A stretch of 27,718 nucleotides of DNA from the UHGV virus genome UHGV-0268347; one strand, 5' to 3'. This stretch comes from a virus. Each line of letters begins with the position of its first letter. The first letter of the stretch is position 1. Positions 1-18,052 of the stretch are shown here, in pieces. The notes below the pieces were generated by a model. That model was not told the origin of the DNA, did not search any database, and saw only the letters and a program-made list of their open reading frames with translations. The position numbers and the translations under genes were made by a program.

Positions 1-141
1 ATGCGGGCAACGGTGTTTAATTATATCGAATGTGATTACAATCGGTGGCGGCGGCACAGTTGGTGTGGCGGCCTCAGTCCGGAACAATTTGAAAACCAGA
101 ACCTCGCTTAAGCCTGTGTCCATATTACGTGGGTAGGATCA
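1..141 (+). mobile_element. insF: IS3 right end: 3' end of transposase orfB (InsF) plus terminal inverted repeat, cut by the window edge
   Basis: Translation of 1..111 is [36 protein letters not shown], which I recognise as the C-terminus of IS3 InsF; ...cacgtgggtaggatca ending at 141 matches the IS3 terminal repeat as I recall it. No search run. Confidence 0.8.
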
Positions 142-181
142 ATAATCGTATCTGTTGTAGCCACAGTCACGTCACATATAA

Positions 182-420
182 GAACTTGCTGGCCTAAGAA
201 GAATGCGCGCTGATTTTGAAGATAAAATCAGCGTTACAACGCCCGAAAGACCCGGGCTAAAAAATTTCTCAGGACATTATCGGCAGGTGACACTCTGGTG
301 GTCTGGAAACTGGATCGACTGAGGCGCAGTATGCGGCATCTTGTCGTGCTGGTGGAGGAACTGCGCGAAAGAGGCATCAACTTTTGCAATCTGACGGATT
401 CAATTGATACACAGTATCTT
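182..420 (+). pseudogene. Serine recombinase (Pin/Gin/Hin-type DNA invertase) remnant, N- and C-terminally truncated with an internal frameshift
   Basis: One frame gives ...FEDKISVTTPERPGLK, the next gives KFLRTLSAGDTLVVWKLDRLRRSMRHLVVLVEELRERGINFCNLTDSIDT; together these resemble residues about 30-95 of Pin-family invertases. The frame switches near the A-run at 255-262. The catalytic-serine N-terminus is absent and the sequence diverges after SIDT. Confidence 0.6.
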
Positions 421-545
421 GTTAACACCAACACATGGCTGCAGGAGGGATATTATCGGTACCCGATTTCAGGATACAGCGCCTGATTAGACTAAAGAGG
501 GGCTATATTGTAGAGTTTGCTAAATTTTTTTATAGGGTTAAGCAA

Positions 546-1616
546 ATGACAGTCAGGAACTACACTAATTTAAATTTAGATCGGACAACTATTGAGGCTA
601 CGTCTAGGGCATTTATTGAAAATAAAAACTATTCCGTCCATTCAATTGGACCAATGCCTGGTGCAAGAGCAGGACTTCGGGTTGTGTTTGCTAAACCAGG
701 AGAAGCTTTGGCAACTGTTAACATTTTCTATAATAACGGAGGGACGTCTACAGTCCAGTATCAAACAGGAGCTAATCATAATCTTGGAAAAGAGTTGGCT
801 GATGATCTCTATGAAACCATCAATCCTGCAGAATTTGAACAGGTAAATATGGTGTTACAAGGGTTCGTTGAAGCGAACGTTTTATCTGTACTTCAGCTCT
901 CAGCAGAGCAGCCACATATACAATTTTACGAATACTTACGGAACACTCATACAACGGTGTGGAAAATTCATTCGCCAGAATTTCAGGATGAGTTGACAGT
1001 TAGTCTGCATCACAGAAATGGAACACTACAAATACAAGGGCGTCCATTGTCATGTTATAGAGTGTTTATATTCAACTTGTCAGAGCTACTCGATTTACAA
1101 GGACTGGAAAAAGTTCTCATTCGTCAGGACGATGGCAAAGCGTATATAGTTCAGAAAGAAGTTGCTCGCTCACATCTAGAGTGTGAAATGGGGGATGCGT
1201 ACCCACTATTGCATAAGAATGTTGAAAAATTGCTCGTTTCTGGGCTGTGTGTTAAACTCGCCGCCCCCGATTTACCCGATTACTGTATGTTGTTGTATCC
1301 TGAATTACGTTCAGTTGAGGGAGTACTTAAATCAACAATGTACCGATATGGCATGCCAATCACGCAGGATGGTTTCGGGCGTTATTTTGATAAAATTGGG
1401 AGTGAATTTATTCTGAAACAACAATTTGGATGCAATTTATCGTCAGCTAAGGTTAAGACCATTAATGATGCCTATACTTTCTTTAACAGAGAACGTCATG
1501 GCCTGTTTCATATGGAGATAGTTGTCGACACAAGCCGTATGGTTTCTGACATGGCACGACTGATGACTAAGGCCAGACAGGCATGGGGAATTATTAAGGA
1601 TTTGTATATTGTTTGA
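546..1616 (+). CDS. rnlA: RNase LS toxin RnlA
   Basis: 356-aa product from ATG 546 (MTVRNYTNLNLDRTTIEA...GLCVKLAAPDLPDYCMLLYPELR...AWGIIKDLYIV); length and sequence closely resemble E. coli RnlA as I recall it. The ORF track's 435 start is an upstream in-frame extension. Confidence 0.8.
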   Translation: MTVRNYTNLNLDRTTIEATSRAFIENKNYSVHSIGPMPGARAGLRVVFAKPGEALATVNIFYNNGGTSTVQYQTGANHNLGKELADDLYETINPAEFEQVNMVLQGFVEANVLSVLQLSAEQPHIQFYEYLRNTHTTVWKIHSPEFQDELTVSLHHRNGTLQIQGRPLSCYRVFIFNLSELLDLQGLEKVLIRQDDGKAYIVQKEVARSHLECEMGDAYPLLHKNVEKLLVSGLCVKLAAPDLPDYCMLLYPELRSVEGVLKSTMYRYGMPITQDGFGRYFDKIGSEFILKQQFGCNLSSAKVKTINDAYTFFNRERHGLFHMEIVVDTSRMVSDMARLMTKARQAWGIIKDLYIV

Positions 1617-1971
1617 AATAACAGGTGTTAACGTCTCAGGGGCTCTCATTGCCGTCGTTATGGCGACTGGCTACGAGAACCCCTTGACTTCAGTTCACGA
1701 AATCGAGAAGAGGCTTTCTGTTATACTGGGCAATTCACAGGCTACAGGTGAGGTTTTGTTTGACCTTTTGTGTTCTAATGGTCCAGAGTGGAATCGCTTT
1801 GTTTCGCTGGAAATAAGGTGTGGCAGTATTTTGCTGGATACTGCCAAAATTGTGGATGAGCAAGAAATTCCAGCGCAGATCTTGAGACATCAGAGAGATG
1901 TATTACGTAACCACCCTGAGTACGTAGAAGACTCTGTGTTAACACCAGATGATGTTCTTTGTATTCTCTAG
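1609..1971 (+). CDS. rnlB: RnlB antitoxin
   Basis: 120-aa product MFEITGVNVSGALIAVVMATGYENPL...NHPEYVEDSVLTPDDV, resembling RnlB; overlaps the rnlA stop by 8 nt (operon arrangement); apparent TTG start. Confidence 0.75.
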   Translation: MFEITGVNVSGALIAVVMATGYENPLTSVHEIEKRLSVILGNSQATGEVLFDLLCSNGPEWNRFVSLEIRCGSILLDTAKIVDEQEIPAQILRHQRDVLRNHPEYVEDSVLTPDDVLCIL

Positions 1972-2108
1972 CTAAGAAATTTTGCACGAGAGGATTTTAA
2001 CCTCCTCCCCGACAGACATGACAGTGCCCAAATGTCTTAAGAACGTATGTACTTGAAATGGACATTGCTAATACCACTGGGTATTGATTAATTTGGGGCT
2101 GGTAAGCA

Positions 2109-2378
2109 TTACAAACCAATAATCTGGAATAGCGCGGTTGCTGCTGCAGACAATGCTGCAAATGAATTGTACTTAGATTGAAGCCGCGCAGTGGCGAAGA
2201 AATCATGGAGATTCACGTTAAGTTCGGGATCTTCATACGTAACCATGACAATTTTTTTGCCTAACTCAACTTTTGCTGTAGCAGATTTAATCCATAAAAT
2301 TGCAGATAAGACGCCAAAAGTTAATGACATCACATGATGATCTTTAATCCAACACATCACAAAAAGTAGATTTTCCAT
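2109..2378 (-). CDS. Hypothetical small hydrophobic protein (89 aa)
   Basis: ORF with a strong RBS (aggaaggtga) 4 nt upstream of ATG on the minus strand; no family recognised; could be a gene fragment. Confidence 0.25.
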   Translation of the reverse strand: MENLLFVMCWIKDHHVMSLTFGVLSAILWIKSATAKVELGKKIVMVTYEDPELNVNLHDFFATARLQSKYNSFAALSAAATALFQIIGL

Positions 2379-2521
2379 TAATCACCTTCCTGATAAAGAA
2401 CAGTGGCATTACAAATAAACAAGAAATCTCCTGTCGCAGGTACCTTGTCAATTTAACACCCACATCAATAAAGGCTGTTGTTCCGTTTGTGGCAGCTGAT
2501 GTATAGACATTTTTGCAGATG

Positions 2522-2548
2522 AAACGAAAAAGCCCGCAGATGCGGGCT
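2522..2548 (-). terminator. Rho-independent terminator (minus strand)
   Basis: Stem agcccgca/tgcgggct with 2-nt loop at 2531-2548, followed on the minus strand by a T-run (plus-strand gaaacgaaaaa). Confidence 0.6.
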
Positions 2549-2678
2549 TTCATGTCACTTGGGAGCCGCGGCTCCTTTGCGTATCCTTTTTTGTATCCTC
2601 ACCGTCTGGTCGGTGTCCTGCTGAGACTGCTAACTTCCTGTTTTTATTGGTGTTGTCCTTACACCGTCCAATCATGAT

Positions 2679-2723
2679 TGGTGGAGCTGGCGGGAGTTGA
2701 ACCCGCGTCCGAAATTCCTACAT
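2679..2723 (-). other. ssrA: Prophage attachment-site core: 45-nt duplicate of the 3' end of tmRNA gene ssrA
   Basis: Reverse complement reads ATGTAGGAATTTCGGACGCGGGTTCAACTCCCGCCAGCTCCACCA, identical to the ssrA 3' end as I recall it; the match stops abruptly at 2724, so this is a partial att copy, not the gene. Confidence 0.8.
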
Positions 2724-2808: not shown

Positions 2809-3855
2809 TTAATGCTCTGTCGCCAATCTGTCGCCATTGTAGGTCAACGAAGGTTGAGCCTTCCCTTTGTTTGTTACAATTTCATCAAAGATAGCTGGAT
2901 TATTATCTTTCAGTAATCTTGCTAGTATAATGATTTGCCCAGACGAGCCATCATCCTTGAATGAAAGGAAATTATCGGTAATATCAAGAATATCAATGGT
3001 AAATTTGAAGTAGGTTTCAATTGTATCGCCAAGTTCAATGCTGGACATGAAGTTAGTAATCATTTCATATCCATCAAAGTATAAAGTTGCATGTTCATTT
3101 AACTCCATGGGAGTTAGGCAAAGCATTCGATTAAGTTCGGATAAGTGTTTTTCTATTGAATGAAGAGATTGCATTTGACGGATTAAAACTTCGTCAAACT
3201 GAGAGCCACGATTAGATGAATTTATCTTCTCTAGGTTTTTTAGTATATCAACCCAGTGATTATTTACTTCACGTATGTATTCTTTATCTGTATTTTTAGG
3301 CCGTCCCTTCTCTGGTGAGCTATTTATGAAAATATATCTATATAGATGTATTGGGTAGTTAATTTTATAACTTATCTCTTTAGTACCATAATGACGTTCG
3401 CGTTTAATGGTTTTGTTAGGTAAATTGGTGAAATAATCAGTAACGAACTTTAGATGGCTATAGTAGCTATCAGATAGATTCTTTTGCTTGGTTTCCTCAA
3501 TTTGTCGGTTTGTTTGAACTGTGCGGTGTATGTTTGCTACGACAGCAACAAATGGTATGGACAAAGAAAGTAAGGCGATAGGAAGCTTGCTAATTGCAAT
3601 GAAATTATTAAAGCCCTCACTATCAAATTGAGGGGAATGTCCAAGCCAGGAAAATATACCAAAGTATATCGCTGAAAATACAGGAATCCTAAGTGATTGT
3701 TTAAATAAGTATTGACTTGTTAATGGCCTTTCATCCATGTTAAAGCCTTTTTTTGATACGCATAGATATAATTCAAGGCATATATATATAAAATATATTA
3801 TGATAAGTAAGTACGATATCCATGGGTATTGTTGGATATAGTTATTAACAAGCAC
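2809..3855 (-). CDS. Hypothetical multi-pass membrane protein (348 aa), AT-rich integrase-adjacent moron
   Basis: ORF between int and att; N-terminus has about three hydrophobic helices (WISYLLIIIYFIYICLELYL, IPVFSAIYFGIFSWLG, LPIALLSLSIPFVAVVANI), then a roughly 230-aa soluble domain; visibly AT-rich. GTG start at 3855 overlaps the int stop, preceded by GGAG; the next in-frame Met is residue 40. Confidence 0.55.
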   Translation of the reverse strand: MLVNNYIQQYPWISYLLIIIYFIYICLELYLCVSKKGFNMDERPLTSQYLFKQSLRIPVFSAIYFGIFSWLGHSPQFDSEGFNNFIAISKLPIALLSLSIPFVAVVANIHRTVQTNRQIEETKQKNLSDSYYSHLKFVTDYFTNLPNKTIKRERHYGTKEISYKINYPIHLYRYIFINSSPEKGRPKNTDKEYIREVNNHWVDILKNLEKINSSNRGSQFDEVLIRQMQSLHSIEKHLSELNRMLCLTPMELNEHATLYFDGYEMITNFMSSIELGDTIETYFKFTIDILDITDNFLSFKDDGSSGQIIILARLLKDNNPAIFDEIVTNKGKAQPSLTYNGDRLATEH

Positions 3856-4885
3856 TTTCTAATTTTCTCCATCCAAGGTTAGCAAGAGGATTTTTGGTTA
3901 CAGCATCTTCCAGATGGTCGGGAGCGAAGTGGGCGTAAATCATTGTCATTTTTATATCGACATGGCCCAGAATATCGCGCAGCACCAGTATGTTTCCGCC
4001 ATTCATCATAAAGTGACTTGCAAATGTATGTCGTAATACGTGTGTGCATTGCCCTTCTGGTAGCTCGATACCAGCTCGTTTAACCGCACGTTCAAAAGCT
4101 TTCCTACAAGGTGTAAATAATTTTCCCCTATTCTTAGGCAGTTCTTCATATAAATCCTTTGAAATAGGCACTGTTCGGTTTTTCTTTCCTTTAGTCTTGG
4201 TATAAGTGATACGGTATTTTGATACCTGATGACTCTGTAAGTTTTCGGCTTCGCTCCAGCGTGCGCCGGTGGCCAAGCATATTTTTGCAATCATCAGCAG
4301 ACTGGGGCTTTGAGAATCAGCACAGGCATCCAGCAGACGTTTAATTTCTTCCGGGGTCAGGAACGCCAATTCACCCTCAGCAATTTTAAATGTTGGCAGC
4401 CCAGCAAGCGGGTTGGGGGCTGACCAGTGGCCCAGCTTTTTCAGTGTACCAAAAACAGATGATAGGTTGCGCTGTTCAAGATTTACCGTGCGGGGCTTAA
4501 CGGGCGACATAAGCGTGCCATCTTCATTTCGTACTTCACCTTTTAACCGTGCTTCGCGGTATTTCGTAAACTCACCAGCTGTCAGTTCTGAGGCGATGGG
4601 ATCGCCTAGACCATTACAGATAATTCTAAGTTTCGCCATGAGGCGCTTGGGGTCTGCGAGTGTTTGACCATACAGGGAATACCACAGCTCAATTAATTCT
4701 GATAGATGTCGCCGATCTTCCTTTTCCCCTAGCCATGGTTTTTTGTTCACTTCTTCCATTGTGAAGCTTTCAAACGCAATGGCTTCGCCTTTGGTAGCAA
4801 ATTGCTTACGCACGCGCTTACCATTGCGTCCATTGGGATAGCACTCACACAACCATTTTCCGTTCGGCTGTTTTCTGATGGTCAT
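3845..4885 (-). CDS. int: Tyrosine integrase (P2/186-type)
   Basis: 346 aa; C-terminal catalytic region with HVLRHTFASHF and MIYAHF (R..H-x-x-R..Y pattern); positioned next to att and the repressor as in P2/186. Confidence 0.93.
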   Translation of the reverse strand: MTIRKQPNGKWLCECYPNGRNGKRVRKQFATKGEAIAFESFTMEEVNKKPWLGEKEDRRHLSELIELWYSLYGQTLADPKRLMAKLRIICNGLGDPIASELTAGEFTKYREARLKGEVRNEDGTLMSPVKPRTVNLEQRNLSSVFGTLKKLGHWSAPNPLAGLPTFKIAEGELAFLTPEEIKRLLDACADSQSPSLLMIAKICLATGARWSEAENLQSHQVSKYRITYTKTKGKKNRTVPISKDLYEELPKNRGKLFTPCRKAFERAVKRAGIELPEGQCTHVLRHTFASHFMMNGGNILVLRDILGHVDIKMTMIYAHFAPDHLEDAVTKNPLANLGWRKLESAC

Positions 4886-4888
4886 AAG

Positions 4889-5527
4889 TTAGAGGTTCTT
4901 GATTACTTTGACTGCACGTCCTACGACTTCCACATCATCTACAGAACATTCAAATGAAGTGTCATCTTGGTTAACTACTATTTTGTTTCCGGGTATGCGC
5001 GCAATTTTGACGATGCTTTTAACTCCGTCCATATCGACTAACCAGAAGCCATTACTGACTTGTTTAACAGACGTATCCACTACAAAGCTATCATTAGCTG
5101 TTTTAACAAATAAAGCGTTGGATGAGTCACCATCGAGCAGGCTGCTATCAAGAAGAATTTCATCACTTGGCTGCAGTTCGCCGTTCTTCAGTTCAACACG
5201 TTTGATGCTAGGAGCAACGATCTTAGAAAGTGGTCTTACAGTGACGGAAGGTTCATTTTTGAGATTTATTTCTTCGTTCTCACACGCATACATATCTCCT
5301 TGACCAGTAGCCAGCCATAGAAGGGAAGCTCCTGTTTCAAGGGCACATTGGATTACCCATTCGGCAGGAAAGCTATCCCTTAAGTATCTGTTAGCCATAG
5401 TGCTTTTTGATACTTCCAGATGTTCGCAGAGCTGCTGTCGTGAGCTGAAGTTGTAAGCCTTAATAAGCCTATTAATCGCATCGCGCCCACCACTATCATT
5501 CCCCGCCTTGATTAAACTCATAATCAA
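4889..5527 (-). CDS. cI: CI-type lysogeny repressor
   Basis: 212 aa, divergent or convergent with the apl-cII operon and immediately upstream of int; N-terminal region resembles the phage CI-repressor HTH domain (186-like). Confidence 0.75.
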   Translation of the reverse strand: MIMSLIKAGNDSGGRDAINRLIKAYNFSSRQQLCEHLEVSKSTMANRYLRDSFPAEWVIQCALETGASLLWLATGQGDMYACENEEINLKNEPSVTVRPLSKIVAPSIKRVELKNGELQPSDEILLDSSLLDGDSSNALFVKTANDSFVVDTSVKQVSNGFWLVDMDGVKSIVKIARIPGNKIVVNQDDTSFECSVDDVEVVGRAVKVIKNL

Positions 5528-7713: not shown

Positions 7714-8567
7714 GCACCATCCTGAAATGGGCGGGAAATAAAACCGCCATTATGTCCGAACTGAAAAAACACCTTCCTGCTGGCCCGCGACTGGTTGAAC
7801 CTTTCGCGGGTTCCTGTGCTGTGATGATGGAGACGGATTACCCCAGCTATCTGGTTGCGGATATTAATCCTGATTTAATCAACCTCTATAAAAAGGTTGC
7901 CTCTGATTGTGAATCGTTTATATCTCGCGCCAGAGTTTTATTTGAGATCGCAAACAGGGAGGTGGCTTATTACAACATAAGGCAGGAGTTTAATTACTCC
8001 ACTGAAATTACTGATTTCATGAAAGCGGTATATTTCCTGTATCTCAATCGTCACGGTTACCGTGGTTTATGTCGCTATAACAAGAGCGGGCATTTCAACA
8101 TTCCCTACGGTAATTATAAAAATCCGTATTTCCCTGAAAAAGAAATTCGCGCATTTGCAGAGAAAGCCCAGCGTGCAACGTTTATCTGCGCAAGCTTTGA
8201 TGAAACGCTGGCGATGCTGCAGGTGGGGGATGTGGTGTATTGCGATCCGCCGTATGACGGTACGTTTTCCGGCTATCACACTGATGGTTTCACTGAAGAT
8301 GACCAGTATCACCTGGCATCCGTTCTTGAACATCGGTCATCAGAAGGACATCCGGTCATTGTTTCTAACAGTGATACATCCCTGATCCGTTCGCTGTATC
8401 GCAATTTTACTCACCACTACATCAAGGCAAAACGCAGCATCGGTGTAGCAGCTGGTGAGAGTAAATCTGCAACAGAAATCATCGCTGTTTCCGGGCCGCG
8501 CTGCTGGGTGGGATTTGATCCTTCGCGTGGCGTGGATAGTTCTGCCGTGTACGGAGTGCGTGCATGA
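7710..8567 (+). CDS. dam: DNA adenine (N6) methyltransferase, Dam family
   Basis: 286 aa; N-terminal KWAGNK motif ([15 protein letters not shown]), [16 protein letters not shown], catalytic DPPY ([10 protein letters not shown]); start overlaps the upstream stop and the stop overlaps the A start. Confidence 0.9.
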
Positions 8568-10978
8568 GCCATGCTGATATGAACAACTGCAGCGGCTTTA
8601 ACAAGGTCGCCGCAGCATTCTCATGGAACAGCCCGAAAAAGGCCATTAACCCTTATCTGGACCCGGCGGAAGTTGCGCCGGTTTCTGCGCTTTCAAACCT
8701 GATCACTCTGTACGCTACCGATAACGAGCAGGAACAACTGCGCCGCGAGGCACTGAGTGATCAGGTCTGGGAGCGTTATTTCTTTAATGAATCCCGTGAT
8801 CCTGTCCAACGCGAAATGGAGCAGGATAAGCTCATTAGCCGGGCAAAGATGGCGCATGAGCAGCAGCGTTTTAATCCAGACATGGTCATTCTGGCTGACG
8901 TCAACGCCCAGCCTTCCCATATCAGCAAGCCGCTGATGCAACGTATTGAATATTTCAGCAGCCTGGGCAGGCCAAAGGCTTATTCCCGCTATTTGCGTGA
9001 GACGATTAAGCCATGTCTGGAACGACTGGAGCATATACGCGACAGCCAGCTATCTGCATCTTTTCGTTTTATGGCAAGCCATGAAGGGCTGGACGGTCTG
9101 CTGATCCTGCCTGAAATGAGTCAGGATCAGGTGAAACGCCTGTCTACCCTTGTCGCTGCGCATATGAGCATGTGTCTTGATGCCGCTTGTGGTGATTTGT
9201 ACGCCTCCGATGATGTTAAGCCAGAAGAAATCCGCAAGACATGGGAAAAGGTGGCTGCAGAAACCCTGCGACTGGATGTCATACCGCCTGCGTTTGAGCA
9301 ACTCCGCCGGAAAAGAAACCGCCGCAAACCTGTGCCTTATGAACTCATTCCGGGTTCGCTGGCGCGTATGCTGTGCGCCGACTGGTGGTATCGGAAATTA
9401 TGGAAGATGCGTTGCGAATGGCGGGAAGAGCAGTTGCGTGCTGTCTGCCTGGTCAGCAAAAAAGCATCTCCCTATGTCAGCTATGAAGCCGTGATGCATA
9501 AACGTGAGCAGCGCCGTAAGTCGCTGGAGTTTTTCCGTTCTCATGAACTGGTGAACGAAGACGGCGACACGCTGAACATGGAGGATGTGGTAAACGCCAG
9601 CAGCAGCAACCCGGCGCATCGCCGCAACGAGATGATGGCCTGTGTTAAAGGCCTGGAGCTTATCGCGGAAATGCGTGGTGACTGCGCCGTTTTCTACACC
9701 ATCACCTGTCCGTCACGTTTCCATTCCACGCTAAATAACGGCAGGCCAAACCCGACCTGGACCAACGCGACAGTAAGACAAAGCAGCGATTATCTGGTCG
9801 GCATGTTTGCTGCATTTCGTAAGGCTATGCACAAAGCCGGGTTGCGCTGGTATGGCGTGCGGGTGGCTGAGCCGCATCATGACGGCACAGTTCACTGGCA
9901 CCTGTTGTGTTTCATGCGCAAAAAAGACCGCCGCGCCATTACTGCATTGTTGCGTAAGTTTGCCATCCGAGAAGACCGCGAGGAGCTGGGCAATAACACG
10001 GGGCCACGCTTTAAGTCTGAGCTGATAAACCCGCGCAAAGGAACGCCGACAAGCTACATTGCGAAATATATCAGTAAGAATATTGACGGGCGTGGTCTGG
10101 CTGGCGAGATCAGTAAGGAAACGGGTAAATCCCTGCGTGATAACGCTGAATACGTTAATGCCTGGGCGTCTCTGCATCGTGTTCAGCAATTCCGCTTCTT
10201 TGGCATTCCGGGGCGTCAGGCTTACCGTGAACTGCGATTGCTGGCTGGTCAGGCGGCAAGGCAACAGGGTGACAAAAAAGCAGGTGCGCCGGTACTGGAT
10301 AACCCGCGCCTTGATGCCATCCTGGCTGCTGCTGATGCTGGTTGTTTTGCCACCTACATCATGAAGCAGGGCGGCGTACTGGTTCCCCGCAAATATCACC
10401 TCATCAGAACCGCTTATGAAATCAACGAAGAGCCAACCGCCTATGGCGATCACGGTATTCGTATTTATGGCATCTGGTCACCCATTGCAGAGGGCAAGAT
10501 CTGCACTCATGCAGTGAAGTGGAAAATGGTTCGTAAGGCCGTTGACGTTCAGGAGGCGGCTGCCGACCAGGGCGCTTGCGCCCCTTGGACTCGTGGCAAT
10601 AACTGTCCCCTTGCTGAAAATTTGTACCAACAAGGGAAAGACAAATCAGCTGATGGGGATACCAGAACGGATATCACCCGTATGGATGACAAGGAGTTGC
10701 ACGATTACCTGCACAGTATGAACAAAAAAGAACGCCGGGAACTGGCTGCAAGATTACGCCTGGTGAAACCGAAACGGCGTAGAGACTACAAACAGCGAAT
10801 TACAGACCATCAACGACAGCAGCTCGTCTATGAACTGAAGTCCAGAGGATTTGATGGCAGCGAGAAAGAGGTCGATTTACTCCTTCGCGGCGGCAGCATT
10901 CCGTCAGGAGCAGGCCTGCGTGTCTTCTATCGGAACCAGCGTTTGCAGGAAGATGATAAGTGGCGGAACCTGTATTAA
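8564..10978 (+). CDS. A: Replication initiation endonuclease A (P2 gpA / 186 A family)
   Basis: 804 aa; metal-binding HWH motif ([10 protein letters not shown]) and tyrosine region ([10 protein letters not shown]) typical of rolling-circle initiators; position after the early operon. Confidence 0.93.
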
Positions 10979-11797: not shown

Positions 11798-12838
11798 TTG
11801 ATTAAAGTTGTTGATCTTTTTTGCGGAGCAGGTGGCTTAACTCATGGTTTGCAACGAGCAGGGTTGAATGTGGTTGCAGGCTATGATATTGATGCTACAT
11901 GTCGGTATGCTTATGAAAAAAATAACAATGCTTTATTTGTGCAAAAAAGCGTCACTGAACTTGATGAAGGGGAAATAAGTAAGCATTTTAAGGATGCATC
12001 AATTAAAGTTTTAGCTGGATGCGCTCCATGCCAGCCATTTTCTAGTTATACAAATACTGATAAATCAGTAAAAAAAATAAAAGACCATCGATGGTCTTTA
12101 TTGTATAGCTTTGCTAAGCAAATTCAATTATGTGCTCCAGATATAGTCACAATGGAGAATGTTCCAAGAGTTATTAACCACAAAGTTTTTAAAGATTTTG
12201 TGAAGACTTTAAAGTCTGAAGGGTATTTCGTTTGGTATGATACTGTATTTTGTCCTGATTATGGAATGGCCCAAAGCCGATCTAGATTAGTGTTATTAGC
12301 GTCCAAGTTTGGCGAGATAAAACTAATCCCGCCAACACATGATAAAAATAACTATAACACTGTACGTAGCGTTATTGGTGGATTGCCTCCTATTGATGCT
12401 GGATCGAGTGATGAGAAAGACAGACTTCATTATGCTGCATCTTTATCACCATTAAATATGGAGCGAATAAAACATTCTAAGCCAGGTGGAACATGGAAAG
12501 ATTGGCCTGAGTACTTACGGGCGTCATGCCACACCAAAGAATCAGGATCTTCTTACACTGCAGTTTATGGAAGAATGAGCTGGGATAAACTTGGCTCTAC
12601 AATTACAACACAATGTATAGGTTTTGGTAATGGTCGATTTGGTCATCCAGAACAAAATAGAGCTATTAGCCTAAGAGAGGCAGCTTTGCTTCAATCTTTT
12701 CCTCTAACTTATGAATTTTGGCCAGCTGAAGTAAAAGTTGAACTCAGGAATGTTGCACGACTGATTGGTAATGCTGTGCCGGTGAGGCTCGGTGAAGTTG
12801 TTGGGCAAAGTATTATTGAACACCTTAAAAGAAAATAA
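11798..12838 (+). CDS. DNA (cytosine-5) methyltransferase
   Basis: 346 aa with canonical C5-MTase motifs: I DLFCGAGG, IV GCAPCQPFS (catalytic Cys), VI ENV, VIII QSRSRLVLL, X GNAVPV. TTG start with RBS agggagga and extended -10 (tgcTACAAT) upstream; visibly AT-rich. Confidence 0.92.
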   Translation: MIKVVDLFCGAGGLTHGLQRAGLNVVAGYDIDATCRYAYEKNNNALFVQKSVTELDEGEISKHFKDASIKVLAGCAPCQPFSSYTNTDKSVKKIKDHRWSLLYSFAKQIQLCAPDIVTMENVPRVINHKVFKDFVKTLKSEGYFVWYDTVFCPDYGMAQSRSRLVLLASKFGEIKLIPPTHDKNNYNTVRSVIGGLPPIDAGSSDEKDRLHYAASLSPLNMERIKHSKPGGTWKDWPEYLRASCHTKESGSSYTAVYGRMSWDKLGSTITTQCIGFGNGRFGHPEQNRAISLREAALLQSFPLTYEFWPAEVKVELRNVARLIGNAVPVRLGEVVGQSIIEHLKRK

Positions 12839-12863
12839 AAAGGGCGAATCGCCCTTTTTTTTA
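12839..12863. terminator. Bidirectional rho-independent terminator shared by the convergent gene pair
   Basis: Stem agggcg-aat-cgccct flanked by an A-run on one side and a T-run on the other (aaaagggcgaatcgcccttttttttag). Confidence 0.75.
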
Positions 12864-14819
12864 GATACCATCAACAATTTTCATTATTCGTGCAGCATCA
12901 TCTTTTTTGCTCTGATACTCAGAGTATGCTTGTTTGGATTGTATTATAAGATCGCTATATGTTAATACCTTTGCATTTATAGATTGTAGCTGTGAGCGAA
13001 TATAATTATCTCCACTTCCGTCATAACCTTTGCCGACAAGAAAAACTACATCTATCGGTGGTATTTTTCCGGCAGGGCAACTATTTGGGTTGTTTCTAAA
13101 CCACTGCTCTGTGGCAACAACATATTTCCTTCCTTGACCTACTAATGCCAAAATATCAGGATATACATTTGGTCTTTTCATTTCAATGATGACGTGTTTA
13201 CCTGAAACGGTTTTGAAGGCTATATCAATTCTTGCACCACTTTCAGCGTCAGGGTTAACCTCTTTCAATTCCTTAGTCAGGGTTTGTTCCATAACTGTAG
13301 AACCAGTAACCCTCTCCCATGATGGGTCTAACAGCCATAAGTGGTCATAAAGATATTTTTGTACAGCCTTCTCTAACTCATTGTCATCGGTGATTTTTTG
13401 AAATTTCTCAATAACTTTCAATCGCTGTGATGTAATCTCATAAAAAAGGCTTGCCTCAATATCATTTACAGAAGCAAAAACCTCCCTAAAATGTTCTGAG
13501 TTTAAATCGCTAATTTTATCTAAAGCCTCAAGGTTATCTTTTATTCTTAATCTTTCAAAAGCAAGAACTGTATTTTTTAATACGGTTTTTTTTGCAATTT
13601 TCTGGTTTTCTTCATCTCCAGAAAATCTAAATGTGTTAATTTTGCCTAGTAATTTTTCGGCGCTGTTTCTTTCATGTTTTGACATGGAATCAAGCCAATC
13701 ACTTACAGCAGGTGAAGTTTTTTTAACCTCGCTAAGACCTTTTGCTCTTCGCCATTCATCCCATTCTTTATCTATTTTTTGTAATGTCCGTTCTAAGAAA
13801 CCCTTAATCACAGGATAGCGTGGATCATTCTGCTGTAATTTCTGTCGGGATGAGGTTGCCATGTCAGGTTTTTCATTTTCATCTAAAAAATCTGCGACAA
13901 GTTCCCCTACTAAATAATTTGTAAAAACCTTTGCGCTTCCGAATTCAAGCAATATATCTTCTTCAAATACCCGCCCATTTGATATTACGGTTATCGTGTT
14001 GTTAGATATTTCAGGGTCTTTTTTAAGTTGAGATGGTTTCTCAACACTTCCTACATAACCAGTAATGAAATAATCTACGCCTTCAAAAGATAATTTGTTA
14101 TCTAGAAGGCTTTTTTTAGAAAGATTTTTGCAAGATTTTACTCTTGCGGGATCTGAACTACCAAACTCCCATAAAAATTCAAGATCTGAAAGGAAGTCTC
14201 TATCTTCAGTAGTTATCTCAGTGTCATTGATTTTAACTATAAAATCATGACCAGGACCAATTATGCTAAACCGTCTGGCAAGTCTTTTTCTTAGATAGGT
14301 CTGAGTTCTATCAATGGATTTTTTTAAATCCATAAGAACTATTGTCGTCCCTATACTAAAGTCTTTCGGAACATTAATAATATTTGCAACATATTGTTTA
14401 CTGCTTTTTATACAGCGTTGCAATTCATCAACGTCAACTTCAAATCCCTGAGGCGTTTGGCCAATTTTGTGAGAAAATACTTGGATTTTGTTAGCTAATG
14501 AAAACATTGCTAATTTACCAATGCCTTTTCTACCCATGACTTGTCGTTGTAATCCATCACTTTTATACCTTCCACTTTCTCTTCTGGCATATCCAACTTT
14601 TAGGAATTTATTAATGATGTCATCTTTTGACATTCCATGTCCATCATCTTTAATTATTACCTTTTCATTTTCAACATCTAGAGTGATGTCTACATTTTTA
14701 GCATCCGCATCCCAAGCATTTGAGATTATTTCAGTTAGAACAGCTGGTGTGTTAGAGTAAAGACTCATACCTAAATGATTCAATACATTCAGGTCTATTT
14801 TAATTTCGAAATCGGACAT
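12861..14819 (-). CDS. GHKL-family ATPase fused to a C-terminal PD-(D/E)xK nuclease domain (652 aa); candidate restriction/defence effector
   Basis: N-terminus has Bergerat-fold motifs: N-box EIISNAWDADAKN, G1 IKDDGHGMS, G2 GRKGIGKLAMFS. C-terminus has GARIDIAF...GKHVIIEMKRP (acidic D532 and E546-x-K548 after hydrophobic strands). RBS aaggaaagga; visibly AT-rich. Confidence 0.85.
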   Translation of the reverse strand: MSDFEIKIDLNVLNHLGMSLYSNTPAVLTEIISNAWDADAKNVDITLDVENEKVIIKDDGHGMSKDDIINKFLKVGYARRESGRYKSDGLQRQVMGRKGIGKLAMFSLANKIQVFSHKIGQTPQGFEVDVDELQRCIKSSKQYVANIINVPKDFSIGTTIVLMDLKKSIDRTQTYLRKRLARRFSIIGPGHDFIVKINDTEITTEDRDFLSDLEFLWEFGSSDPARVKSCKNLSKKSLLDNKLSFEGVDYFITGYVGSVEKPSQLKKDPEISNNTITVISNGRVFEEDILLEFGSAKVFTNYLVGELVADFLDENEKPDMATSSRQKLQQNDPRYPVIKGFLERTLQKIDKEWDEWRRAKGLSEVKKTSPAVSDWLDSMSKHERNSAEKLLGKINTFRFSGDEENQKIAKKTVLKNTVLAFERLRIKDNLEALDKISDLNSEHFREVFASVNDIEASLFYEITSQRLKVIEKFQKITDDNELEKAVQKYLYDHLWLLDPSWERVTGSTVMEQTLTKELKEVNPDAESGARIDIAFKTVSGKHVIIEMKRPNVYPDILALVGQGRKYVVATEQWFRNNPNSCPAGKIPPIDVVFLVGKGYDGSGDNYIRSQLQSINAKVLTYSDLIIQSKQAYSEYQSKKDDAARIMKIVDGI

Positions 14820-15239: not shown

Positions 15240-16289
15240 TCAGCCTCGTTTGCTCTTAAGTCCTAAGTCATAGGCTTCAAAACGGATCACCTCTTCACCC
15301 AGCCAGTTGTTAAGCTCCTGCAGTCGCTTTTGCAGTGGCATCAGTTCATTGCGGACGAAAACACGGCTCGCCTTTTCCACATCACCGAAGCCACCAGTGT
15401 TGTTGGGAATGATACCCATCATTTGCGGCGGCACACGATGCGCCGCCATCATGTCGTCCCGGCTTACGTTCTTGATGTTCAGAAACTCATCCTTCGCCGC
15501 GACTTCTGATAACGGGATAATCTGAAGTCCGTCCTTTTTGCCGTTAGGAGAGTACATAAACAGATTGCGGAAGTTACCTGGTCCTTTGGCGCTTTTCATT
15601 GCATTGCGGAGGTTGTTCACATCCTCCTGGTTTTGTGCGGCGTCGGTCATGTACATGATGAAGCCTGCATGACTGCCGTTGATGTAATACTTCCGGCGGA
15701 ACAGCGTGGCGGACTCGTTGAGCAGGGCTGACGGAATGGCAGAAAGATAACCGGGCAGGCCGTAGATCTCCTGGTTGATGTCCGGTTCCATCAGATGAAA
15801 AATGCTGCCTTTCGCGAACTGATACGGCTGGGTTGTCATACCGTATTGCACAAACCAGTAGGTATCCAGGTCTAACCCGCGTCGGGTGTATTTTGCCAGA
15901 GCAGGCTCTAGGGCGATAACTTCACCGAAGCGGTTCGTGCGTTTCTCCAGGTAGGCGTTACCAAATACCAGATAGTCCTGCACAAAACGTGAAAAAGCCT
16001 GCTGGCTGAGCAGCGGGTGAGGGATGTAGGTGCTGGTCAGAATGTTGCATTTCACCGCAATCGGTGAGCTGTGATGCACGGCGGCGCGGAAGGTTCGCGC
16101 CAGTCCGTCGAAACTCACAGGCGGCTCATACCAGCGATCCATCTGTACGCATTCCACATAGTCCAGCAGTTCACGGCGGTCCAGAACAGGAACGGGATCG
16201 CCGAAGCTGAATGCTTCGGCTGTAGTTTGACTTTTAAGCTGGATCTGTTTCGTCGCCGCAGCGCGGTTCTTCTTACTCTTTCCCATCAA
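15240..16289 (-). CDS. Q: Capsid portal protein Q
   Basis: 349 aa; size, position next to cos and upstream of the terminase ATPase, and sequence match P2 gpQ. Confidence 0.9.
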   Translation of the reverse strand: MMGKSKKNRAAATKQIQLKSQTTAEAFSFGDPVPVLDRRELLDYVECVQMDRWYEPPVSFDGLARTFRAAVHHSSPIAVKCNILTSTYIPHPLLSQQAFSRFVQDYLVFGNAYLEKRTNRFGEVIALEPALAKYTRRGLDLDTYWFVQYGMTTQPYQFAKGSIFHLMEPDINQEIYGLPGYLSAIPSALLNESATLFRRKYYINGSHAGFIMYMTDAAQNQEDVNNLRNAMKSAKGPGNFRNLFMYSPNGKKDGLQIIPLSEVAAKDEFLNIKNVSRDDMMAAHRVPPQMMGIIPNNTGGFGDVEKASRVFVRNELMPLQKRLQELNNWLGEEVIRFEAYDLGLKSKRG

Positions 16290-18052
16290 AAAATCTCCAC
16301 AATATTGCTGGTATTGGCGGATTCGCCCTGCAGCGGTTCGTTAAACAGTGCGTGCATCGTTGCCCAGGCCAGATCCGCATGGCTGGCTTCTTCGCTGCGG
16401 CTGGCTTCATAGGTCGGGCGGTTGCCACTGGCGGTGGTGGAGCGACGGATTGCCATAAAGGACTGCGCTATGTCGGTGTGTCCGGCGTCAAACTCCAGAC
16501 GGCGGTGGCTGATAATGTCGTAGGCCTTGAGTACCAGGGCGTTTTTAACGTTGGGGTTGTAGACAAACTCCCGGACGGCAGGAAAGAATGCTTTCACGTT
16601 CTCGTAAACCCCGTGGCCGACGCCAGTTGAGTCGATGCCGATGTATGTCACGTTGTACTGTTCGGTCAGTTTTTTGATGGCGTCAGCCTGGGCGCGGAAG
16701 TCCATCCCGCGCCACTGGTGACGCTCAAGAATGCGGAACTTACCGCCCGGCACGGCTGGCGGTGCCACCACCACGCACCCGGCGCTGTCGCCGTTCTGCG
16801 TACCTTTTGCCGGGTCATAACCGATCCACACCTCGCGCCAGCCAAACGGGCGCAGCGCCAGTGCATGAAAGTCGGTCCAGACTTCCCAGCTGTCCACCAT
16901 GCACGCCTGCAGCTCGCTGAGCGGGAACACGGACGCGAGATCGTCCACAAACTCGCACATCAGCAGGTTCTGGTATTCGTCCGGGCTGTACTCCATGCGC
17001 AACTGGTCAAGGTCGAACAGGTTACAGCCGCCGCGCACCGCATCTTCCACGGTGACTATCTGGCGGTACTGCCCGTCTGCGCACAGCAGGCCGGGGGCCA
17101 GATTGCGGTGGGACAGGTCGATGTCCACCTTATCGGCTTTGTTGCGCCCTCGGTTGAACAGCGCACCGGACCAGAACGGATAAGCACTGTGTGTCAGGCT
17201 GGATGGCGTGGAAAAATAGGTTTGTCGCCATTTTTTGTGAATAGCCATACCGGAAGCCACTTTGCGCAGCTCCTGGAATTTCGGTATCCAGAAATATTCA
17301 TCCAGATACAGGTTGCCGTGGTAACTCTGGGCCGTGCGGGCATTGGTGCCGAGGAAGTAAAGCGTGGCCCCGTTAGGAAGCACCATCGGATCGCCTTTCA
17401 GCTCCACCTCCACTTCTTTGGCGAAGTCGATGATGTACTGCTTAAAGACGTGGGCCTGTGCCTTACTGGCGGAAAGGAAAATCTGGTTACGCCCGGTAAG
17501 CAGGGCGTCAATCAGGGCTTCACGGGCAAAGTAAAAGGTCGCGCCGATCTGGCGTGACTTCAGCAGATTGCGGATGCGGTTGGTTTTTCCGGCTTCCCAC
17601 CAGTGGCGCTGGTAGTTGAACATGGAGGAATGGAAGATTTCTTCCAGCTTCTCAATCTGCTCATCGGTGAAAACATTCTTTTCCGGCTGACGGCGTGGGC
17701 CTTTGTTGCGGTTGGCGACGTTTGGGTTTAAGTCGGCTTCGTTGCCGCCATTGTTAAACTTGCCGATCCGCGCGTGGCGCTCCGACTGGCGCGCCAGCAG
17801 GTCAATCTCTTTGAAATCTTTCCCTTCTTTGTGCTCCTTCATGATGAGCTGACAGTAGCGTGCGGCGGTGGTGAGCTGCATCTGATCCAGCGGACCATAG
17901 TCACCCCACTTGTCGCGTTTTTTCCAGCTGTGAACGGTTGCAACTTTCTCGCCCAGCATTTCAGCAATGCGGGCTACGCGGTATCCCTGAAAGTACAGCA
18001 GCATGGCCTGCCGACGGGGATCGAGATCTGCGGGTGTCAGTGTGGTGTTCAT
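16286..18052 (-). CDS. P: Terminase ATPase (large) subunit P
   Basis: 588 aa; P2 gpP-like, overlapping Q by 4 nt; Q-P leftward operon as in P2. Confidence 0.9.
   Translation of the reverse strand: MNTTLTPADLDPRRQAMLLYFQGYRVARIAEMLGEKVATVHSWKKRDKWGDYGPLDQMQLTTAARYCQLIMKEHKEGKDFKEIDLLARQSERHARIGKFNNGGNEADLNPNVANRNKGPRRQPEKNVFTDEQIEKLEEIFHSSMFNYQRHWWEAGKTNRIRNLLKSRQIGATFYFAREALIDALLTGRNQIFLSASKAQAHVFKQYIIDFAKEVEVELKGDPMVLPNGATLYFLGTNARTAQSYHGNLYLDEYFWIPKFQELRKVASGMAIHKKWRQTYFSTPSSLTHSAYPFWSGALFNRGRNKADKVDIDLSHRNLAPGLLCADGQYRQIVTVEDAVRGGCNLFDLDQLRMEYSPDEYQNLLMCEFVDDLASVFPLSELQACMVDSWEVWTDFHALALRPFGWREVWIGYDPAKGTQNGDSAGCVVVAPPAVPGGKFRILERHQWRGMDFRAQADAIKKLTEQYNVTYIGIDSTGVGHGVYENVKAFFPAVREFVYNPNVKNALVLKAYDIISHRRLEFDAGHTDIAQSFMAIRRSTTASGNRPTYEASRSEEASHADLAWATMHALFNEPLQGESANTSNIVEIF

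Follow-up and report, generated by a model that had tools for sequence, protein, structure and literature searches.

The 45 nucleotides at positions 2679-2723 of the window, by which we mean the whole analysed stretch of 27,718 nt from virus genome UHGV-0268347, very probably represent the attachment core at the integrase-proximal junction of a Fels-2/RE-2010-like prophage that entered the tmRNA gene ssrA on top of an older, IS3-truncated lambdoid prophage stump. The locus is a composite of successive integrations: two foreign segments stand in series, the 45-mer is the internal boundary between them, and the distal boundary of the older segment has been lost to IS3. To the right of the core, a P2-family, Felsduovirus-like prophage occupies 2724-27718 in classical gene order and runs off the end of the window.

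The displaced 3' end of ssrA

The plus-strand sequence of window 2679-2723, TGGTGGAGCTGGCGGGAGTTGAACCCGCGTCCGAAATTCCTACAT, is the exact reverse complement of positions 319-363 of E. coli ssrA with the CCA end included (identity 45/45), and the minus strand accordingly reads as the T-arm and the 3' acceptor strand of the molecule. The annotated tmRNA gene of AHM8C212RI (363 nt), reverse-complemented and then aligned, served as the reference. The same 45-nt end is found exactly in the annotated tmRNA genes of AHM8C212RI, K-12, JJ1886, HS4 and PEC1011, and all five genes gave a full-length BLAST alignment at 100%. As neither ARAGORN nor Rfam (at the gathering threshold) called a tmRNA or tRNA gene in the window, 2679-2723 is a fragment and not a gene; such silence is expected for a piece of 45 nt, for which reason the check was made against the annotated ssrA genes. 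A second tmRNA pseudogene at this place was also considered and rejected. The 45-mer has no other match within the window, even with three mismatches permitted, and with a chance expectation of zero the shuffled controls gave no match at all. Further ssrA fragments above chance were found neither in window 1-2678 nor in the corresponding flank of AHM8C212RI. In comparison with an uninterrupted ssrA locus, identity is perfect over 2400-2723 and collapses from 2724 on, so the description in the earlier note, of a terminal 45 nt of tmRNA with CCA followed by an abrupt divergence, is accurate.

The far prophage end and the unoccupied site

Elements that integrate into the 3' ends of tRNA-like genes carry the gene end in their attP; one junction thereby regains a complete gene, and the displaced end stays behind at the other. 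Both junctions can be read in close relatives of the window prophage. Window 2679-27718 differs from a prophage of E. coli HS4 by one mismatch in 25,040 nt (99.996% identity), and beyond the D-ogr prophage end HS4 and PEC1011 alike carry a hypothetical gene, then an intact ssrA and smpB. The two core copies lie 35,722 bp apart in HS4, and when the junctions of HS4 and PEC1011 are compared, the only sequence that they share is the 45-mer plus one flanking T. In these two genomes the same 45 nt thus bounds both prophage ends, and it also lies inside the terminal repeats of RE-2010, which supports the proposal of the earlier note that the fragment is an att duplicate. In HS4 and PEC1011 a hairpin with a T-run, of phage origin, lies behind the rebuilt ssrA. 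The note had further placed the intact ssrA beyond the other prophage end and outside the window, which is the arrangement seen in these relatives; judging from the near-identical HS4, it should stand about 10.7 kb past the right end of the window.

The state of the locus before the arrival of this prophage is preserved in AHM8C212RI, which is 100% identical to window 1-2723, there contiguous with an intact ssrA, and which carries no P2 phage. The alignment to an empty ssrA locus that had been suggested is provided by this genome, as it follows the window without a difference over 1-2723 and then runs into ssrA. AHM8C212RI therefore represents the attB state for the P2-family phage, which places the crossover inside the 45 nt. 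The prophage boundary is fixed to the base, at 2723/2724. The complete E. coli genomes of the collection do not have the rnlAB flank joined to this prophage in exactly this way, none of them covers the junction beyond 80%, and the combination was likewise not found among the 20 listed places returned by look-ups of the integrase and of the 89-aa protein described below.

Gene content of the left flank

The window begins with the right end of an IS3 element (1-141), whose terminal repeat, ending in GGATCA, closes at 141 and which truncates the older lambdoid prophage; this IS3 end is 98.6% identical to one in PEC1011. Position 141 is also where identity to the JJ1886 prophage sets in, within the tail-fibre assembly gene of the latter and 4 nt from that gene's 3' end. 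The first gene trace is a Pin-type DNA invertase pseudogene (215-411, plus strand), a remnant of the lambdoid prophage that is annotated in RefSeq as a frameshifted partial recombinase, as read on the 100%-identical sequence of AHM8C212RI. Its identity is 82-88% both to pinH/pinE and to the invertase genes of the P2-like prophages.

Next comes an rnlA-family toxin gene of 356 aa (546-1616, plus strand) with the Pfam domains RnlA_toxin_N, RnlA_toxin, RnlA-toxin_DBD and HEPN_RnaseLS, and it overlaps by 8 nt with an rnlB-family antitoxin gene of 120 aa (1609-1971, plus strand; Pfam RnlB_antitoxin, E 3.5e-24). The encoded proteins are 71% and 69% identical, respectively, to RnlA and RnlB of K-12, and the annotations of AHM8C212RI and JJ1886 name the former an RnlA family toxin. 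As the RnlA-RnlB domain set is complete, with all Pfam matches above the curated cut-offs, and the genes overlap, the pair is predicted to be a type II toxin-antitoxin system of the RnlA-RnlB kind.

Between this pair and the ssrA fragment lie two further features on the minus strand. The gene at 2109-2378 encodes a hypothetical protein of 89 aa that belongs to the phage family phrog_14357 (unknown function, E 4e-33); it stands beside rnlB at lambdoid tail-fibre ends in 10 of the 10 contexts that were read, and an exact-protein look-up found the protein to be widespread (2885 index blocks). Sequence comparison identifies 2523-2678 as the lambdoid-phage-borne version of a 156-nt segment that directly follows the 3' end of ssrA. 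RNA folding and direct reading reveal a terminator-like hairpin with a U-run at about 2528-2550 of the minus strand, for which a scan for consensus terminators made no call. In K-12, HS4 and JJ1886 the distal ssrA fragment has a copy of the segment (88-94% identical) behind it, and some version of it adjoins a copy of ssrA in nearly all E. coli.

The lambdoid origin of the left flank

The DNA to the left of the 45-mer is, as far as can be judged from comparisons of sequence, the stump of an older lambdoid prophage, namely its ssrA-proximal end, cut off by IS3. Over 141-2723 the window agrees to 99.69% with the DNA adjacent to ssrA in JJ1886, and altogether the flank is 99.7-99.9% identical to the ends of lambdoid prophages. 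In JJ1886 it continues into a complete lambdoid prophage, with tail-fibre assembly gene, tail fibre gene, lom and J, followed further on by the terminase genes, the repressor region and int. Past int there are an AAA ATPase gene, dam, a 33-nt fragment of the ssrA 3' end with one mismatch, and a second copy of the 156-nt segment (91% identical). This prophage of 45.7 kb thus has ssrA at one end and the 33-nt ssrA fragment at the other. To look for its empty site, ssrA was joined to the distal flank of JJ1886, and the joined sequence was found with 100% identity and full coverage among the matches listed and with at least 80% coverage in 709 of 5426 complete genomes. Because the joined sequence occurs in other genomes, the 45.7-kb segment of JJ1886, including its rnlAB end, is a precise att-bounded insertion in ssrA. 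The 709 genomes lack both the P2 prophage and the lambdoid stump, and in one of them glaH lies only 684 nt from ssrA.

The pin remnant, rnlA, rnlB, the 89-aa gene, the 156-nt segment and the ssrA end are common to the window and the JJ1886-type prophage. In contrast to the latter, the window lacks everything past the 3' end of the tail-fibre assembly gene, where IS3 is found instead, and its stump is now split from ssrA by the P2-family prophage. A distal ssrA fragment belonging to the lambdoid remnant is present neither in the window nor in AHM8C212RI, and it is the comparison with JJ1886-type genomes that points to a former integration of this remnant at ssrA. A 48-kb ssrA integrant of CFT073 and RS218 was listed by Williams 2003, as cited in Table 1 of PMC10107115, and the JJ1886-type lambdoid prophage is probably the kind of element behind it.

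One could argue that the flank is simply native chromosome on the bacterial side of attB, and that the locus holds a single prophage and is no composite. In AHM8C212RI and other strains the flank is indeed contiguous with an intact ssrA and has no integrase nearby, and a version of the 156-nt segment is a neighbour of an ssrA copy almost throughout E. coli. However, the empty-site genomes do without this DNA, the rnlAB cassette reaches at least 80% coverage in just 64 of the 5426 complete genomes, and in JJ1886 the same DNA runs without a break into a complete lambdoid prophage bounded by att sites. The match to JJ1886, the position of the cassette beside tail-fibre genes also at other loci, and the membership of the 89-aa protein in a phage family together identify the flank as phage DNA, and we regard a chromosomal origin as very improbable. 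A different question is how the phage DNA came to its place, as the rnlAB remnant could have been acquired by homologous recombination between resident lambdoid prophages, without any lambdoid integration into ssrA in this lineage. This would fit the finding of 99-99.9% identical copies of the cassette (rnlA, rnlB and the 89-aa gene), accompanied by the 156-nt segment and 26-28 nt from the very end of ssrA, at lambdoid tail-fibre ends away from the ssrA locus, namely at an icd-linked site and in at least three other contexts, which indicates that the cassette moves between prophages. On the other hand, the junction with ssrA in the window and AHM8C212RI is that of an integrated JJ1886-type prophage, identical across the 45-mer into ssrA, and integration is the simplest route to it, so that we consider such an exchange unlikely. 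In either case the flank is derived from a prophage, and the reading of the locus as a composite stands.

Equivalents of window 141-2706 were seen at five other loci. The sites of the cassette outside ssrA lie by an icd fragment and bluF/bluR (the e14 site), by xdhC and a LysR gene, by a P4-type integrase, and by IS66 or IS21. The rnlAB cargo thus takes half of an ssrA-type attP along with it as a fossil. It has occurred to us that the last 26-28 nt of ssrA, the 156-nt terminator segment, the 89-aa gene and rnlBA might together be a portable module, passed from prophage to prophage at different loci (icd, xdh-linked, IS-flanked). It could then serve as a terminator or insulator at the prophage end, or else offer a decoy or secondary landing site to integrases that target ssrA, for instance those of P4-like satellites, but this is a speculation to which we give little credence.

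The relation to CP4-57

The earlier note had associated the rnlA-rnlB pair to the left of the fragment with CP4-57 of K-12 and remarked on its opposite orientation. The orientation was correctly seen, as both genes lie left of the minus-strand ssrA fragment and converge with it, whereas in CP4-57 they are co-directional with ssrA. The association itself does not hold. In the alignment to K-12 CP4-57 that had been called for, rnlAB matches with 72.8% nucleotide identity, and otherwise only two stretches of 60-65 nt align, both in the IS3 end; a P4-type integrase is missing. Of the two origins that had been offered for the composite, successive integrations are borne out by the lambdoid prophage end beneath the P2 prophage, but rearrangement is not, since there is no inversion of CP4-57. 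In the window, the rnlAB pair is prophage cargo and not a marker of CP4-57.

The idea that the left flank is an inverted piece of a CP4-57-type island with a P4 integrase, and that rearrangement of such an island made the composite, deserves a closer look because in K-12 CP4-57, too, rnlA-rnlB lies downstream of ssrA, with the relative orientation reversed, and because HS4, PEC1011 and several other genomes have P4-type islands arrayed in tandem with this P2-family prophage. Against it speak the low similarity to the K-12 pair at both the nucleotide and the protein level, and the fact that the 60- and 65-nt stretches (80-83% identical) are all that aligns besides. An integrase of the P4 type, with the Arm-DNA-bind_3/Phage_int_M architecture, is absent from the window, and the flank has its near-identical counterparts at the ends of lambdoid prophages. 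Furthermore, the scars of P4-type elements are short and degenerate (the 14 bp of psaA in K-12, about 22 nt with indels in HS4), whereas the scar of the window has 45 nt and is perfect. We find this origin extremely improbable and have rejected the flank as inverted CP4-57 material; here rnlAB is a cargo cassette of a lambdoid prophage, located at its tail-fibre end.

What the locus has in common with CP4-57 is the use of the ssrA 3' end and an rnlA-rnlB toxin-antitoxin pair as cargo. It differs in that the P4-type integrase of CP4-57 adjoins the intact gene and its distal scar is the degenerate psaA of 14 bp. Excision of CP4-57 via psaA deletes U357 and inactivates the tmRNA, and integrants of the P2 type keep CGCCAGCTCCACCA intact (PMC10107115, Table 1). 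As the displaced copy in the window is perfect, with CGCCAGCTCCACCA unchanged, precise excision of the present prophage would regenerate a wild-type ssrA, unlike that of CP4-57 in K-12.

The layout of K-12 past psaA (L004, 23973-29305) is reminiscent of window 215-2693: psaA scar, 156-nt segment, ypjA and pinH in the one, scar, 156-nt segment, rnlAB cargo and pin remnant in the other. The whole ssrA-glaH interval of K-12 (36 kb) is missing from the empty-site genomes, and the ypjA-pinH stretch past the annotated end of CP4-57 looks like another decayed prophage stump. The ssrA-glaH interval of E. coli, which measures 684 nt when empty and at least 36 kb in K-12, can be seen as accessory DNA that stems from repeated integration and decay, which is not new in kind.

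The P2-family prophage

Directly to the right of the core follows the phage arm of the attachment site (2724-2836), which carries CTGTCGCCA twice in tandem at 2817-2836. This motif has two matches in the window, both of them in the tandem, where 0.26 would be expected, and it lies about 95-115 nt from the att core. Related motifs, CTATCGCCA and TTGCCGCCA, are found near the opposite arm in HS4, PEC1011 and RE-2010. The tandem may provide arm-type sites for the integrase, for which it is a candidate by motif and position.

Between the attachment site and int lies an open reading frame with 33% GC (2809-3855, minus strand), which belongs to phrog_17460 (unknown function, E 1e-156) and for which RefSeq gives a version of 309 aa with its start at 3738. 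It has no Pfam match, and a weak match to the PADLOC "2TM effector" (E 2e-4). As the gene in this slot is unrelated in sequence in RE-2010 and of a different length in PEC1011, the slot is a variable cargo position. The tyrosine integrase gene follows at 3845-4885 on the minus strand (Pfam Int_N and Phage_integrase), with a product that is 94% identical to the integrase of the Salmonella phage RE-2010, a Felsduovirus, and then a CI repressor of the 186 type at 4889-5527, also on the minus strand (Pfam Phage_CI_repr and Phage_CI_C).

The remaining P2-family genes of the window (5638-27718) were assigned by means of the HS4 and PEC1011 annotations, Pfam and PADLOC. On the plus strand, the early genes apl/cox-like, cII, fil and dam are followed by the replication gene A (8564-10978). 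Portal and terminase genes are located at 15240-18052 on the minus strand, and capsid, lysis, baseplate and tail-fibre genes come after them. The space between gene A and the portal gene, presumably the tin/old cargo slot of P2, holds what looks like a type II restriction-modification pair by its Pfam and PADLOC matches: a C5 cytosine methyltransferase gene (11798-12838, plus strand), and a gene (12861-14819, minus strand) for a 652-aa HATPase_c_3 protein that matches PADLOC models of type II restriction enzymes with E 9e-91.

An exact-protein look-up found the window integrase to be widespread as well (4880 index blocks). The identical 346-aa integrase also occurs beside another flank, with LysR, flavin reductase, AraC and RND efflux genes, at four loci in genomes of 5.3-5.4 Mb. 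Many Klebsiella prophage records match the early region of the window prophage at 91-97%, and phages of this type may use ssrA across enterobacterial genera.

A proposed order of events

The history of the locus would most likely begin with an empty ssrA-glaH site, as it is still found in the 709 genomes. A lambdoid phage would then have integrated via a core of 33 nt or less, bringing its own version of the 156 nt and the rnlAB cargo to a place right behind ssrA. An IS3-associated event would have removed most of this prophage, resulting in the state of AHM8C212RI, and finally the Fels-2-like phage would have entered via the 45-nt core, so that the stump came to lie 35.7 kb from ssrA. The deletion probably preceded the second integration, as in AHM8C212RI the remnant is already truncated although no P2 phage is there, and on this ground the IS3 event is tentatively placed between the two integrations.

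For the last step we propose that the Fels-2/RE-2010-like phage inserted in the 3' end of ssrA by site-specific recombination, catalyzed by its presumably active tyrosine integrase. An attP with the same 45 nt would have rebuilt an intact ssrA at the far prophage end and supplied it with a phage-borne terminator, and the displaced 3' end would have stayed by int. The core length varies with the type of element at ssrA, and amounts to 45 nt in the P2 family, 26-33 nt in lambdoid elements and 14-22 nt, degenerate, in those of the P4 type.

Comparison with known elements at ssrA

The integration of Fels-2 and SopEPhi in ssrA has been reported (PMC3448106, citing Pelludat 2003). The group of Fels-2, SopEPhi and RE-2010 (ELPhiS) in Salmonella ssrA has the same order as the window prophage and its relatives, with att, cargo gene, int, CI, apl and cII, later A, then Q, P, O and N, and at the end D, ogr and att. 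The annotated 84-bp terminal repeats of RE-2010 contain the same 45 nt of ssrA, and in this group, too, the displaced copy keeps CGCCAGCTCCACCA and excision leaves ssrA unharmed (PMC3448106; PMC10107115, Table 1). In contrast to this Salmonella group, the window prophage has E. coli as its host and the repeat shared by its junctions is 45-46 nt, compared with the 84 bp annotated for RE-2010. It also has a different open reading frame as cargo beside att and the predicted type II restriction-modification pair in the A/Q slot, and its repressor region is just 84-87% identical.

Tandem arrays and accretion of elements at ssrA have been described, also by Williams 2003, as cited in PMC3448106, PMC10107115 and PMC3146451, and ssrA islands have also been described in Dehalococcoides (PMC3146451). 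As in those arrays, successive elements have used one tmRNA gene here, each leaving a 3'-end fragment as a boundary; the difference is that the older member in the window is a decayed stump that retains neither an integrase nor its distal repeat. The hotspot, the Fels-2-type integration and the tandem arrays are all documented (PMC3448106, PMC10107115, PMC3146451) and the prophage is already present in public genomes, so the finding is an ordinary one. Its gain lies in the annotation, as the prophage boundary is set and the location of the intact tmRNA gene is predicted.

In HS4 and PEC1011, the P2 phage and P4-type elements form arrays at ssrA. Elements with a P4-type integrase often come next in tandem after the same P2-family prophage, as in HS4 (L003, 6609-18686), in PEC1011 (L002, 3298-8732) and at five further loci. 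Their cargo includes a P4-like satellite with psu, delta and primase genes, a pair of histidine kinase and response regulator, a SIR2-STAND gene, a YobI ATPase and LmuB-like genes, and the satellite of HS4 has a distal scar of its own, of about 22 nt with indels.
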